DNA of 25,321 nucleotides from Thermodesulfobacteriota bacterium (GCA_034189385.1 JAXHVD010000034.1:1-25321), one strand, 5' to 3'; shown: positions 6,623 to 23,554, counted from the first letter of the stretch. Numbers and translations are program-made. Notes: a model not told the origin generated them from the letters alone.

Positions 6623-7711
6623 ATGCCAGGAGATATTTTCACACTCTTAAGTGCCTTGTTGGTGGGGCTTATTTTTGGGTTTGTCCTTCAGAGGGGCAGA
6701 TTCCGCTGCAATATGGCCTTTGCCAGCATGATCACCCCGAGAAAAGACTTCACGATATTTAGGGCGTACCTCCTGAGCCTTCTGGTTGCTATGCTGGGAG
6801 CAAATCTCATCGAGGATATTGGTTGGTTGATTGCCGTGGACCCGTCAGACGGAGAGGTTGTAACGAAAGCATTATATCGACAGGGTTTTGCACCAATTGC
6901 CAATATCGTTGGTGGATATATCTTTGGGCTTGGTATGGTCCTGGCTAATGGTTGCGCGAGTGGTATTCTTTACAGATGTGGTCAAGGGTTTACGGATGCA
7001 TGGTTGGCTTTTGCAGCTTTCTTCCTAGGTCTGTGTGTTACAATACACGGATGGCTAAAACCACTTTATGGGTTGTCCGCTTCTGTGATTGTCAGAGTCA
7101 ACGACAAGGTAAATCCCGCCCTTTGGGATCTTTTTGGCGGGGGTATGGCGGCGAAGTGGATAACCATAGGTGTCATTACAATCATCATCAGCCTCTTCCT
7201 CGTGCGTGGAGAGCCTTTTAAGCGGGCTCTGAAAGGGTATTACTGGTCAACAACGGGCCTGTTTCTGGGTGTGATCATAGTCATCGGGTGGTGGGCTTCC
7301 ACATACTGGGGGGGGCGGCCAAGGGGCCTCTCCTTTACAGGGCCGACGGCAGAGTTCTTTCTCAGCTTTCTCACGGGAGATCCAATGGTGGGCAGGACGC
7401 CCGTCTTTGATTTCTTTGGTCTGTTTCAGACGACATGGGCCTCCCTGTATGTCGTAGCCGTTCCTGTGGGGGCGTTCATTAGTGCAAAGTTGTTGAAGGA
7501 ATTTAAACTGTTTTTTCTTCCACGGGAAGAACTCCTAGCGACCTTTATTGGTGGGTTCATTATGGGGGTAGGTGCTGCCGTGGGACGTGGCTGAAACGTC
7601 GGTCATGGGTTGACCGGTGCGTCAACCTTGGCCATATCTAGTATCGTCACAACCATTTCTATCGTTCTTGGAATCTGGACGATGTTTTACTTCAGGTTCT
7701 TAAAGGAATGA
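6623..7711 (+). CDS. YeeE/YedE (TsuA-like) sulfur-compound transporter, selenoprotein (Sec324, TGA 7592-7594)
   Basis: FGFVLQRGRF and GMVLANGCASG motifs. The C-terminal repeat GAAVGRG-TGA-NVGHGLTGASTLAISS continues in frame for 38 residues, including the last TM helix, to TGA 7709-7711. Start placed at ATG 6623 after GGGAG. Confidence 0.9.
7601..7633 (+). promoter_or_regulatory. SECIS-like hairpin of the yeeE gene
   Basis: GGTCA-T-GGGTTGAC-CGGTGC-GTCAACCT-TGGCC directly 3' of the in-frame TGA; loop contains GG. Confidence 0.8.
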
Positions 7712-7732
7712 TCTCTACTCTATGCTATCATT

Positions 7733-9046
7733 CTAGTCGATGGTTACCTTTTTTGTTTGCTTTCTCCAAAGCTGATTCCAGCGGGCCGCCGGCCCTTCTG
7801 TCTCGCCAAAAGGAACATACCAAAGCTCCACATCAATATCCATTTCTTTGAAAAGAGGTTTTCCGTAGATTTCTTTTCCCTGTTCTATCTTTTCATATGG
7901 GAATGGAATCTCGAAGGTCTCTACCAGCGTGCGATAAGGCGGAAGGGCGGTGTCACGGATGAGGCCGGCCTTTTCGTAAGGGCCTCTGCCCATCTCTTTG
8001 CCACAGCCCATTTTTCCGGGAGCAGGCATATAGATTTTGGAACTTCTTAAAACTTCCTCACCATCAGGGCCCTTTGCGATCACATCCAGGATCATTCGGT
8101 TTGGCGTCGGTCAGCCATCCGGGATTTCGTGACCCGTCTTGTTCGTTAGCTCTACCCTGACCACTGCCAGAGGCGTCACCCCCTCCACCTTGTTTTTTCG
8201 CCAATAGTAGCCAAAGGCATCCACCTCAAACCTCAAGGCCGCTTCGGCCATGTCGGGATCCCGGTAGGCCGGCATAACATGCCCTTGATTGAGTTTTTTC
8301 ATATGGCAGGCCTGGCATGTTTCGTGACCACCTTCAGCAACGTAGGCAAATAAATAGCTTCCGTAAGCTGTTGCGCACTGTGAGGGCTCATCAAACTCAA
8401 AATTGGGTCCAAGACCGTGGCACTGCCCGCAGAAGACAGATTCATGCAGAATCGGGCTCTTTTTCATGACGGGATACTTCTCGTCCTCGTGCGCTCCCTC
8501 CTGTGTTCCATAAACGGCATCCTCTTGTGGGAAGCCTTGCGCCCACTTGTGAGTGATAGCTTTCGCCTGGTGGCAGATCAAGCAGTTGATGTTGATCTTC
8601 CTGAGCTTTTCTACACTCTGTTTTTTTGTTTCTTTGTCCCAAAGGCCAAATACTGCCTTGACAATTTCCTGTGCAACACTATCTGTGGCCTCTTCAAGCT
8701 GTGGCAAATGACACTTTGCACATAGCATGAGATGCTTCAGCTTGACATCCTCCGGTTTCTGAACCCCAGAATAGGGCCATGTCATCAGGCCTTTTGTAAT
8801 GGTGGTGCCTATGGTGGCAGCCGTTCTGGCCCCGACTCCAAATATGGATTTGGAATGGGCGGAAGCTTCCCATTGTTCATAGATTTCCTCATGGCATTCC
8901 TTACAGGAACTCACGTCATATCGTGCTGCCAGTTCATCTATGCTTCTTGCCTTCTTTCTTACAGGATCTGCCTTCGCATCTTGACATAGCATCATGAACG
9001 GCAATCCAAGAAGGGCCAATATCAAAACTGATTTAAAGGATCTCAT
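7733..9046 (-). CDS. extKL: Pentaheme c-type cytochrome selenoprotein ExtKL-like (437 aa, Sec312, TGA 8113-8111)
   Basis: Signal peptide and five CxxCH motifs (CKECH, CAKCH, CLICH, CGQCH, CQACH). HEIPDG-TGA-PTPNR-MILDV joins ORFs 8111..9046 and 7733..8095 in frame, matching the PDGUPTPNR motif of Geobacter ExtKL. Confidence 0.9.
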
Positions 9047-20494: not shown

Positions 20495-20506
20495 GGGGTC
20501 ACCTCC

Positions 20507-23500
20507 TTATTTATTTAAAAAAGCATGCATTTGCGCTTCTATCTGCGTATCGTTAAAGGCGTTGATGCTGATGGCATGACGATAGCATGTGGCCGCACAG
20601 ATCCCGCACCCCTTGCACGAAGCAGAAATCAACTTCACCTTGCGACCTTCCGGAGTGTCCTCCAGGTCGAGGGCGCCGTACGGACAGAGGGCCACACAAA
20701 GCCCGCAACCCCGGCAAGCCTCCTTGTCCACAAAGGCGGCTACAATGGGCTCAATCACAACTTTATCTTGGGCCATCACCGTAACAGCGCGAGCTGCAGC
20801 CGCCTGGGCCTGTGCGATACACTCATCGATGGGTTTGGGATAGTGGGCAATACCGCAGACAAAAGCCCCGTCTGTGGAAAAGTCCACCGGTCGCAATTTC
20901 ATGTGGGCCTCCAGGAAGAACTTCTCCTGGTTCAAGGTGACCTTCAGCATGTTGGCCAGTTCTTCTGTGCCTCTTGGCTCGATACGCGTGTATAGCGTAA
21001 GGAAATCTGGATGAAGGATAATCGGCCTACCGAGAACGTGGTCCGTAACCGTCACCTGAAGCTTCCCATCCACTTCTTCGACATTTGGTTTGTTGTCTAG
21101 GTCATAGCGAATAAACAAGATCCCCATGGACCTGGCCTTCTGATACAGCTCCTCAAGTCTCCCATAGGTCCTGATATCCCGATAGAGCATATAGACATCC
21201 AGATCCGGATTGATCTCCTTCAAGTCGATCGCACTTTCAATGGCATGGGCGCAACAGACCTTGCTGCAATAAGGATGGTCGGGCTCCCTGGACCCCACGC
21301 AGTGGATGGCCACCGCACAATTGGCATTCTTAATGGAGTCTGGATCATTCTCGATTCTTTGATCAAGATCCCACCATTTACCCACACTTGGATTCTCACC
21401 GTAGAGATATTCTTTGACCTTCGCCGAATCTGCTCCCACGGAAACGATGACCGTGCCATGGTCAAATGACGCGCCGGTGGTCAGATCGGTGTGGAAGTTG
21501 CCCACAAAACCGCTCACCTGTTTCAACTCGGCCCCGGTGTGGACATCTATGTTTTCGTGATCATTGACCCGTTTGATCGTCTCATCCATAAAAGGCTTCA
21601 TGGGCTCGCCCGTAAGGGCCTTTCGCATCTTTAGACCATGTCCGCCCAACTGGTCTTTCTTTTCCACCAGATAGACCTTGAACCCTTGATCGGCAATAGT
21701 TAGCGCAGCCGTCATCCCGGCGGGTCCACCCCCGACAACCATACATGATTTGGTCAATGGGACTTGAATAGGCTCAAGGGCCACCCGATAGTTGGCCTTG
21801 GCTACACCCATGGCCACCAAATCCTTGGCCTTTTGGGTGGCCGCATCAGGGTCTGAGCTGTGTACCCAGGAGTCCTGGTCGCGGATATTGGCCATCTCAA
21901 AGAGGTGCTTGTTGATGCCGGCATTTGACATGGTTTCCTGAAAGAGGGGCTCATGGGTCCGGGGGGAGCAGGCTGCCACCACCACGCGATTCAGATTGTG
22001 TTCCTTGATCATTTCTGCGAGCTGGTCTTGGGCGTCCTGCGAGCAGCTAAAGAGATTTTCCTGCACGTAAGTCACATTGGGAAGGGTCTTGGCAAACTCA
22101 GCTACTTCATGGACGTCCACGACAGACCCAATATTGATGCCGCAGTTACAAACAAAGACCCCCATTCGCGTCTCTTCGGTTGAAACATCACGCTCAGCCG
22201 GAAATTCCTTCACCTTTTTCAACTGGCCTCGGGCCGGCGCCAGGTCGACGGACGCCGCCGCCGCCGCCGCGCTTGCTTCCATGACGGAATAAGGGATATC
22301 TTTGGGCCCCTGAAAACAGCCTGCCACATAGATGCCGGGCTTTGAGGTGGCCACTGGCGTGAAAGCGCCCGTTTTTGCAAAGTTATACTGATCCATTTCA
22401 ACGCCCAACTTGTTTGCCAAATCAATGGCTGACTTGGACGACTCCAGGCCGACAGAGAGGACCACCATATCAAAATCCTCGGTCTGGATGTTGCCCTGTT
22501 CGTCCACGTATCGGATATTGAGCGTCTTGTCCTCGTTTTCTATGACACTGTGAACCCTGCAGCGGATAAAGCGCATCCCCTGGCCTTTGGCTCGATCATA
22601 ATATTTCTCGAAATCCTTGCCATAGGTCCGCATGTCCATAAAGAAGATGGCGGCATCTAGGGGCTCATGGGAGTGCTCCATGGCAATCATGGCCTCCTTG
22701 ATGGCATACATGCAGCAGACCGAAGAGCAATAGGCGTTATCGCAGCGGTTGATGTCTCTGGAACCAACACACTGGAACCAGGCAATCTTCTTCGGCTCTT
22801 CCTTGTCCGAGGGACGCTGCAGGTGACCTTGCGTCGGACCCGTAGCTGCCAGGATCCGCTCAAAGTCCATGCTGGTTACCACGTTCTTGAAACTGGCGTA
22901 TTGATACGTGTCCCATTTGGAGGGATCAAAGGCCTGAAAGCCGGGCGCCATGATGATGCCGCCGACATTGAGATCAAAAACGGTTTCTTTTTGATCGAAG
23001 TCAATGGCGTCATTTTCACAGAACTTCTCGCAGGCCTTGCATTTGCCTTTTTTCCCAGCGTCTATGGCCTTGAAGTACAAACAGGCCTTTCTATCAATGG
23101 TATATTTCAACGGAACGGTTTGGGAGAAAGGAACATACACGGCCTTGCGTTTGTCCATGCCCATGTTGAATTCATTGGGCACCTTCTTGGGGCACTTTGA
23201 GGCACAGACACCGCATCCCACGCATTTGTCTTCATCGATATAACGCGGATGCTTGATGACCTTAACCTGAAAGTTTCCTTGTTCGCCGCTGATGCTGTCT
23301 ATCTCAGCGAGGGTGATGAGATTGATGTTCGTGTGCCGGCCGACCTCGACCAGCTTAGGTGAGATGATTCACATTGCACATTCGTTGGTAGGAAAGGTCT
23401 TGTCCAGTTGAGCCATGATCCCACCGATTCCCGGCGACCTTTCAACTAGGTGCACATAAAACCCTGAGTCAGCTAAATCCAGGGCGGCCTGCATGCCGAC

Positions 23501-23554
23501 GATGCCGCCGCCTGCAATCAATACGGATCCGACGACGTCTTTACCACTTGCCAT
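20507..23554 (-). CDS. hdrA: Large heterodisulfide reductase subunit A-like flavoprotein, selenoprotein (1015 aa, Sec62, TGA 23371-23369)
   Basis: AGGAGG RBS; GGGIVG...[27 protein letters not shown] joins in frame to ORF 20507..23221. Two HdrA modules (two CVGSR...CSxVCC), GVFVCNCG...AACSPRTHE domain, internal and C-terminal ferredoxin motifs. Confidence 0.95.
23335..23354 (-). promoter_or_regulatory. SECIS-like hairpin of hdrA
   Basis: Minus strand GCTGGTCG-AGGT-CGGCCGGC starting 14 nt after the TGA; loop GG at +24/+25. Confidence 0.8.

Follow-up and report, generated by a model that had tools for sequence, protein, structure and literature searches.

The window (the whole stretch of DNA analysed) comprises 25,321 nucleotides of a Thermodesulfobacteriota bacterium (GCA_034189385.1, JAXHVD010000034.1:1-25321), an uncultured, marine, sulfate-reducer-type organism of Desulfobacterales type, the genome of which (4.13 Mb in 64 contigs) is 90% complete. 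Between positions 6623 and 23554, i.e., over about 17 kb, it holds five neighbouring genes that really do encode selenocysteine (Sec), namely yeeE, extKL, an hdrD-like gene, mvhD, and hdrA. This region is real, well resolved, and mostly already known biology, and each of the five proteins adds a new member to a selenoprotein family already known. It is probably made of two units, an ext-type sulfur-respiration operon and an adjoining cytoplasmic hdr redox operon.

An earlier note on this DNA had reported an in-frame TGA in each of the five genes and had described all of them as fragmented by the caller of open reading frames (ORFs). The TGA codons are indeed present at all five positions, in the peptide contexts that had been given, and each frame is open across one TGA. 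Fragmentation, for its part, applies to yeeE, the closest database homologs of which are called as proteins of 323 aa that end at the residue just before the TGA, and is not borne out for the other four genes.

Selenoprotein genes of the region

The yeeE gene (6623-7711, plus strand) encodes a YeeE-type sulfur channel, with its Sec codon at 7592-7594 (GRG-U-NVGH). The start at 6623, already proposed in the earlier note, is the ATG at which the closest database homologs begin; an alternative GTG start lies at 6569. The protein matches the complete PF04143 (Sulf_transp) profile (positions 1-310 of 310, 188 bits). The reading frame truly ends at a second TGA (7709-7711), since the Sulf_transp match is complete by residue 371 and homologs end there, and no fold is seen past it. 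In the alignment with S. thermophila YeeE (6leo), U342 (numbered from 6569) falls in the Cys293 column and C129 in the Cys91 column. In the S. thermophila protein, thiosulfate is first bound at Cys293, an essential residue on the periplasmic side, while a C22A variant still complements (PMC7449682). The window protein thus shares with the S. thermophila/E. coli YeeE/TsuA proteins the full Sulf_transp fold, Cys91, and a Sec in the Cys293 column, but it is found in a respiratory cytochrome operon and not in a sulfur-assimilation context.

Two further sets of YeeE proteins carry Sec at this site. A split YeeE/YedE pair (G000:C5:108328-109364) has an in-frame TGA in its first half-protein, within ADG-U-PSG-HGL; as this is the same column, the idea that the window protein displays a new Sec position (GUNVG instead of GUxSG) was rejected. 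A second, more distant YeeE clade from metagenomes (L169-L172, 51-55% identity), with an ordinary Cys22 column, also has a TGA at the Cys293 column, so that Sec at this site is not confined to the clade of the window's YeeE.

On the minus strand, extKL (7733-9046; Sec codon 8113-8111, PDG-U-PTPNR) encodes an MccSep-type five-haem periplasmic selenoprotein. It scores 564.5 bits on NCBIfam NF040886 (cut-off 250) and aligns end to end with G. sulfurreducens MccSep (PDB 9wt8/9wt9, E 2e-152), with U312 on MccSep residue 325 and C224 on the haem-ligating C239 (haem 2; 9wt9_A alignment). Five CxxCH motifs (CKECH, CAKCH, CLICH, CGQCH, and CQACH) are found in its translation. According to PMC13510729, MccSep (ExtKL, GSU2937-2936) is a selenoenzyme with five haems that forms tetramers, has polysulfide reductase activity, and is indispensable for sulfur respiration. 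By homology, the window ExtKL would reduce polysulfide (and selenite), the activity and the tetramer being known from the Geobacter enzyme alone.

The three other Sec genes belong to the hdr operon (23554-15818, minus strand). The hdrA gene (20507-23554; Sec codon 23371-23369, ECAM-U-IISP) encodes a double-HdrA protein of 1015 aa, with three stretches matched by NF040770, and U62 (CAMU) corresponds to Cys197 of HdrA 5odc_A. Because its NF040770 score (980.6 bits) is below the equivalog cut-off of 1100, this protein is regarded as HdrA-like and not as the methanogen HdrA2 equivalog. The mvhD product (19700-20494; Sec codon 20449-20447, CTW-U-GY) matches PF02662 (FlpD) with 167.9 bits against a threshold of 22.3, and its U16 lies in the CxxC motif, at the position of Cys16 in MvhD 5odc_D. 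About 130 aa are appended C-terminally (19700-20100) and give weak winged-helix matches (HTH_IclR, E 1.5e-4; TrmB, E 6.5e-4), and this winged-helix-like tail is kept at 89% identity in relatives. Finally, the hdrD-like gene (15818-17122; Sec codon 16396-16394) encodes an HdrD/GlpC-like Fe-S oxidoreductase with two 4Fe-4S motifs and CCG domains (Pfam). U243 stands in the invariant NTE[C/U]GH column, which is the catalogued UGH motif, and the equivalog cut-offs of HmcF, TmcB, and DsrK are not reached. These assignments confirm the earlier division of the five genes into a Sec-containing channel for sulfur (YeeE type), a multihaem cytochrome with Sec in the periplasm, and a set of three Hdr-type Sec proteins in the cytoplasm.

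Selenocysteine decoding

The Sec machinery is complete in the genome, in which selA (540 bits), selB (370 bits), and selD (389 bits, with its own in-frame TGA) are all found above their curated cut-offs, together with a tRNA-Sec gene (72 bits; gathering score, 47). How far the TGA codons are conserved was followed in four other species-level genomes of the same genus (G008, G013, G015, and G016). The TGA is kept in all four of them for both extKL and the hdrD-like gene, with the protein conserved on either side, in three out of three for yeeE (G008, G015, and G016), and in the two same-genus orthologs of both mvhD and hdrA, a 56%-identical paralog of hdrA having Cys instead. Each of the five TGAs is thus retained in related genomes, at protein identities of 82-89%.

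In wider samples, the homologs carry mostly Cys or TGA at these sites. The Sec column contains 60 TGA and 22 Cys for the hdrD-like protein (82 hits over 80 loci), 13 TGA, 20 Cys, 2 Ser, and 1 Tyr for MvhD (36 hits), 3 TGA and 18 Cys for HdrA, and 12 TGA and 65 Cys for YeeE, for which 5 of the 82 hits (over 80 loci) do not cover the site. Of 401 genomes sampled across the phylum, 46 have a member of the ExtKL family, which exceeds the cut-off in 43 and almost always contains a single TGA. Protein-database alignments place a C in the Sec column of 14/14 full-length YeeE homologs and in the NTE[C/U]GH column of 13/13 hdrD-like homologs; since these alignments print U as C, such rows mean "Cys or Sec". 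A 2026 review on the selenoproteomes of prokaryotes (PMC13188914) lists HdrA CxxU, MvhD/FrhD CxxU, Fe-S oxidoreductase-like UGH, ExtKL (NF040886), and YeeE/YedE GUxSG. All five Sec sites are therefore already catalogued, and the earlier view of them as Cys/Sec positions, in families with reported Sec forms, is borne out, with Cys or TGA in the column of each site.

Support from Sec insertion sequence (SECIS) hairpins is more uneven. Folding energies 3' of each TGA were compared with those of 1000 random coding windows of the same genome. The predicted hairpins of yeeE (-18.6 kcal/mol, reached by 1.1% of coding windows), the hdrD-like gene (-15.5 kcal/mol, 4.7%), and hdrA (-14.0 kcal/mol, 8.7%) give good support; for the hdrD-like gene, an 11-bp hairpin begins 13 nt past the TGA (z -3.5). 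The support is soft for extKL and mvhD. For extKL, RNAalifold found no consensus structure in the 51 nt past the TGA (21 sequences), and a stem chosen by eye shows 87.6% pairing across the 21 sequences and 6 compensatory cells, a number reached in 1 of 500 shuffles. For mvhD, a small conserved stem is predicted past the TGA, with two pairs showing double changes.

The alternative to Sec decoding is that some or all of these TGAs are errors of sequencing, lesions of pseudogenes, or genuine stops, past which the frames continue by chance. The hairpin energies of extKL and mvhD speak for this and against Sec, being unremarkable (72% and 42% of coding windows, respectively, fold at least as well), and so does the fact that the comparison was one of assembled contigs, for which none of the 40 differences listed hits a TGA base, 1441 others lying beyond that list. 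Nevertheless, the same TGAs recur in independent assemblies, for all five genes, as well as in metagenome contigs. Alignments from Pfam, NCBIfam, or PDB span every one of the five TGAs, the sites fall on catalogued Sec motifs, and the machinery is complete. This explanation is, thus, close to refuted, and TGA conservation constitutes a stronger argument for Sec than the hairpins do.

A count of selenoproteins over the whole genome by codon-usage scoring was dropped, as its 404 candidates included false positives (the TGA stops of acdh and extP) and missed mvhD. Within the window, two copies of catalogued selenoprotein families, C_GCAxxG_C_C (15207-15716) and an RnfC/PrdC-like protein (24460-25320), show no supported in-frame TGA.

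Operon architecture and neighbourhood conservation

The ext operon (6623-15716) continues on the plus strand after extKL. It comprises an ExtJ-like small exported protein of 78 aa with an N-terminal hydrophobic, signal-like stretch (9391-9627), the large multihaem c-type cytochrome ExtM (9870-11714; NF040943, 1054.9 bits against 800), an ExtN-type multihaem cytochrome (11629-12900, start probably near 11710; NF040967, 653 bits against 200), a Rieske [2Fe-2S] protein in the ExtO position (12747-13247, with an uncertain start that is probably past 12900; Pfam Rieske, E 1.9e-11), the cytochrome b6-like ExtP (13255-13875; Pfam Cytochrome_B, 130 bits), the membrane subunit ExtQ (13818-14285; NF040970, 183 bits against 150), and the c-type cytochrome lipoprotein ExtS (14261-15100; NF040971, 329.9 bits against 100). 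The last gene of the operon encodes a C_GCAxxG_C_C (DVU_1555-like) protein (15207-15716; PF09719, 51 bits), which is 89% identical in relatives and is always located between extS and extKL or hdrD. In the Geobacter-type loci L028, L029, L030, and L036, the tblastn matches of the ExtJ-like protein directly adjoin extKL; in the relatives of the same genus, they are located between yeeE and extM. The 423-aa ExtN-type cytochrome scores nearly equally (657.7 bits) on NF040968 ("ExtO", iron-sulfur cluster-binding subunit), while the true Rieske protein matches neither model, and the name of the NCBIfam ExtO model may not fit its content.

In Geobacter, the ext cluster (extHIJKLMNOPQS) has been known since 2018 (PMC5877670). 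The window has ExtJ-like, ExtM, ExtN, Rieske, ExtP, ExtQ, and ExtS in the same order as the Geobacter MccSep/ext cluster. It differs in its host, of Desulfobacterales type, in the addition of C_GCAxxG_C_C at the end, and in its first gene, as a rhodanese-like ExtH and a porin-like ExtI precede ExtJ in Geobacter, whereas the Sec-YeeE heads the operon here. No rhodanese or porin family hit was found in the 24 window ORFs scanned, this search being limited to the window. Moreover, extKL is not located between extJ and extM; it is inverted beside yeeE or, in relatives, placed at the 3' end. A segment of about 1.65 kb (7715-9367), made of extKL and its upstream region, is inverted between yeeE and the ExtJ-like gene, as seen by blastn against the contigs of relatives, and three genomes of the genus have extKL at the 3' end of the operon instead, past C_GCAxxG_C_C. 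Because metagenome contigs show both orders (the window type in L157, L158, L159, and L162, the other in L161), the difference reflects genuine variation rather than misassembly. Repeats were looked for at the ends of the relocated segment (window versus G008:C196, loci L021/L076), but none was detected.

Two more genes complete the hdr operon. One encodes a 295-aa protein resembling the C-terminal half of HdrA (17138-18025, minus strand), residues 52-277 of which correspond to positions 281-515 of the HdrA2 model. The other (18027-19706, minus strand) encodes an N-terminal HdrA fragment (residues 5-158, HdrA2 positions 138-296) fused to a GltD/NfnB-like NAD(P)H flavoprotein, as residues 137-558 match PRK12771/GltD-type models, with Fer4_20 and Pyr_redox_2 domains. 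Deltaproteobacteria are known to carry a four-selenoprotein operon in which frhA, frhD, and hdrA cluster with a GlpC-like Fe-S oxidoreductase (PMC13188914). Compared to it, the window cluster has no hydrogenase large subunit (frhA/mvhA) and contains the flavoprotein fused to the HdrA fragment, the separate HdrA-half protein, a HdrA duplicated in one 1015-aa chain, and the winged-helix-like tail of MvhD. Compared to the M. thermolithotrophicus HdrABC-MvhAGD complex (5odc), to which the first HdrA unit aligns over 434 residues and MvhD over 133, the set is devoid of HdrB/C and hydrogenase; the CCG function is carried by the fused HdrD-like subunit, and the likely electron donor or acceptor is NAD(P)H, through the GltD-like domain.

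Between the two operons, which are convergent, lies a palindromic hairpin of the bidirectional-terminator type (15769-15800), with 14-nt arms that are 93% complementary and a 4-nt loop. Together, convergence and hairpin indicate that the ext and hdr sets are separate transcription units. Taken as a whole, the terminator scan (25 versus 20.9) did not exceed its shuffles, nor did the promoter scan (16 versus 13.9). At the other end of the ext operon, directly upstream of yeeE, 4406-6341 holds a 540-aa SidJ-related pseudokinase (NF033874, 642 bits against 300) and a 93-aa ORF without family, both of which keep their place in G008, G016, L156, L157, and L160-L165 (60-76% identity). Further upstream (162-981, minus strand), four tRNA genes (Thr-GGT, Gly-TCC, Tyr-GTA, and Thr-TGT) are found; a weak hit of the tRNA-Sec model at 802-882 is accounted for by the Tyr tRNA gene.

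Within the genus, this organization is largely retained. One contig of G008 carries, in this order, the pseudokinase, the 93-aa ORF, yeeE, extJ-like, extM, extN, Rieske, extP, and extQ, and the next contig carries extS, C_GCAxxG_C_C, and extKL, which runs head-on into the hdrD-like gene; parts of this order are found in G013, G015, and G016. In the window, C_GCAxxG_C_C directly abuts the hdrD-like gene, so that a single rearrangement (the inverted extKL piece) distinguishes it from its relatives. The ext and hdr sets are adjacent in 4/4 same-genus genomes carrying extKL (G008, G013, G015, and G016). In two of them (L023, i.e., G013:C130, and L024, i.e., G015:C575), the hdrD-like gene (86% identical, TGA kept) still faces extKL, and a paralogous hdrA/gltD-like set, 42-56% identical to that of the window and with Cys at the HdrA Sec site, is located on the other strand. 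Thus, the hdr neighbours of the hdrD-like gene have been exchanged, but its position next to the ext genes has not.

Beyond the genus, the adjacency is absent from the loci sampled. The extKL sample contained 47 loci from 42 other genomes of the phylum, comprising all matches above the family cut-off (three genomes that gave weak matches only were not used, nor were two weak second places), the loci ranging from 1969 to 20,000 bp, 34 of them being 20 kb long. No hdrD, hdrA, mvhD, or gltD-like hit (E<1e-8, within about 9 kb of extKL) was found in these 47 loci, in six of which ExtM to ExtS follow extKL. Conversely, the neighbourhood of the hdrD-like gene was inspected in 80 loci of named genomes of Desulfobacterales type; it includes hdrA in 36 of them, mvhD in 34, and a gltD-like gene in 20, and ext genes in only one, which is the G008 contig of the same genus. 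This type of hdr operon is common across Desulfobacterales, and the ext-hdr neighbourhood is a genus-level trait.

The association between yeeE and the ext genes is better supported. A YeeE-like gene adjoins extKL in only one of the 47 loci (L068, 26% identity), but yeeE is directly upstream of extJ-like and extM in G008, G015, L157-L159, L161, and L162. In addition, 9 of 80 metagenome loci encode Cys-type YeeE proteins (45-57% identity) within 8 kb of genes for both Rieske and cytochrome b, and one more does so near cytochrome b alone. For example, L193 (3825-9092) carries on one strand the genes of a cytochrome c7-like protein, a PDZ protein, Rieske, cytochrome b, a cytochrome b C-terminal part, TusA, and YeeE. 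Further loci of this other lineage, with a Cys-type YeeE gene in or next to an operon for Rieske and a split cytochrome b, are L167, L181, L182, L190, L203, L212, L222, and L235. No description of this recurrent YeeE-Rieske/cytochrome b pairing was found in the literature searched.

The genus-level conservation bears on the idea, put forward in the earlier note, that the locus links periplasmic reduction of sulfur or selenium compounds to cytoplasmic electron bifurcation. In an integrated pathway of this kind, YeeE(Sec) would import periplasmic sulfane sulfur or selenium, which would then be reduced at the Sec-CCG site of the HdrD-like protein through HdrA/MvhD/GltD-like bifurcation. In related systems, CCG domains of the HdrD/DsrK type have disulfide or trisulfide sulfur as their target. 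The placement of the hdrD-like gene beside ext, in the window and its four relatives, through the move of extKL and the hdrA/gltD-like swap, would also fit such a pathway, as would the sulfur-transfer components left open by the MccSep paper (August 2026), in which the routes of sulfur species to and from the periplasmic enzyme are stated as unknown (PMC13510729). Against it stand the lack of hdr genes in the 47 extKL loci, the single same-genus record among the 80 hdrD-like loci, the convergent operons with a hairpin between them, and the fact that genomes of one genus are not independent. The genome furthermore contains 8 MvhD domains, 3 of them with a TGA, and many HdrA copies (about 7 HdrA clusters), at least 4 of which have a TGA; with so many other Hdr clusters, a chance Hdr neighbour is less unlikely. 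Such integration is, thus, unlikely, and the view of the five genes as an integrated selenium redox machine is weakly supported. Of the link proposed earlier, the yeeE-ext part holds better, while the ext-hdr part has adjacency within one genus as its sole basis.

The earlier note also knew of no description of this arrangement. Its parts are described: ExtKL is the solved MccSep, the ext cluster was reported in 2018, and a multi-selenoprotein hdr operon is presented in PMC13188914. What is new in the locus is the yeeE-headed ext cluster, with C_GCAxxG_C_C appended, extKL relocated, and a triple-Sec hdr operon adjoining. This gene arrangement was not met in the literature searched on Sec ExtKL or YeeE/Rieske, supplements aside, as these may hold neighbourhood data, and the main text of PMC13510729 makes no mention of YeeE, Hdr, Rieske, or a gene cluster.

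Proposed functions

The arrangement that accounts best for these data is probably that of two adjacent but separate respiratory modules containing the five Sec genes. In the first, a Rieske/ExtP/ExtQ membrane complex would oxidise menaquinol, and ExtKL, in the periplasm, would receive the electrons via three multihaem cytochromes (ExtM, ExtN, and ExtS). There, the Sec would attack the polysulfide chain and the haem-ligating Cys would resolve the adduct, a chemistry shown for the Geobacter enzyme. The Sec-YeeE, with its Sec at the periplasmic entry, may move a sulfur (possibly selenium) anion of the pathway across the inner membrane. The second module would be an independent, cytoplasmic, NAD(P)H-linked flavin-iron-sulfur complex of HdrA, MvhD, and HdrD-like proteins, with a thiol, a disulfide, or a persulfide as its putative substrate. 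That the modules are independent is inferred, as are the route of the electrons and the identity of the transported species.

Several observations weigh against this picture. The Rieske protein is below the cut-offs of b6f Rieske models and is identified by Pfam only, and ExtP reaches 227 bits on NF040969, under the cut-off of 290. YeeE is below both TsuA equivalog cut-offs (NF052577, 193.8 against 400; NF041049, 102 against 645), and its cytoplasm-side Cys22 column holds an Arg, with a Cys one residue later (this next residue is Leu in one member of the window's yeeE clade). No YeeD/TusA partner could be identified beside yeeE, as the two small ORFs upstream of it (6060-6341 and 6350-6544) gave no Pfam or NCBIfam hit, in contrast to L193, in which TusA is encoded ahead of the Cys-type YeeE. 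Finally, the ext-hdr adjacency is found in all five checkable genomes of the genus, which are related and not independent observations, despite the extKL move and the hdr swap in G013/G015, and this persistence hints at something beyond inertia.

A more far-reaching reading would have a rebuilt MccSep/Ext system in this genus, in which the Sec-YeeE replaces the outer rhodanese and porin parts, the whole being kept beside the triple-Sec Hdr complex. All five selenoproteins would then make up a transmembrane selenium-sulfur relay, in which ExtKL cuts polysulfide in the periplasm, the YeeE Sec captures a sulfane (or selenium) species and passes it inward, and the Sec-CCG site of the HdrD-like protein reduces it via flavin-based bifurcation. 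This reading is improbable.

A function in selenium or tellurium handling was also considered, in which selenite or tellurite would be the compounds reduced by ExtKL and the Ext cytochromes, a role initially put forward for Geobacter, while the Sec-YeeE would import selenium for a large selenoproteome. The Ext families bear the name "selenite/tellurite reduction operon" in NCBIfam, selenite-dependent oxidation of methyl viologen is supported by MccSep (PMC13510729), a Geobacter extI mutant is impaired in selenite and tellurite reduction (PMC5877670), and the YedE relatives of YeeE are proposed selenium transporters (PMC9312934). Geobacter genetics, on the other hand, point to sulfur, as MccSep is essential for sulfur respiration, and the window YeeE is far below the YedE/FdhT cut-offs (NF033796, 54.9 against 350; TIGR04112, 25.2 against 200). 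Furthermore, two other PF04143 matches (G000:C29:7915-8964 and 10803-11726) lie just upstream of the Sec-containing selD, and this pair is more likely to be the selenium importer than the window YeeE, since a position directly upstream of selD is expected of a YedE-type selenium transporter. Selenium or tellurium handling as the main role of the locus is, therefore, quite improbable.

The locus shows that an ext/MccSep system with rearranged genes is found beyond genomes of the Geobacter type. Its five Sec sites within 17 kb also offer a compact test bed for those annotation pipelines that truncate such genes. The ext-hdr link, if true, would give the orphan bacterial HdrA/MvhD/HdrD-like complexes a substrate, although the present evidence for it is weak. 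The Sec-YeeE heading the ext operon provides a concrete and testable candidate for the missing sulfur-transfer step of MccSep.

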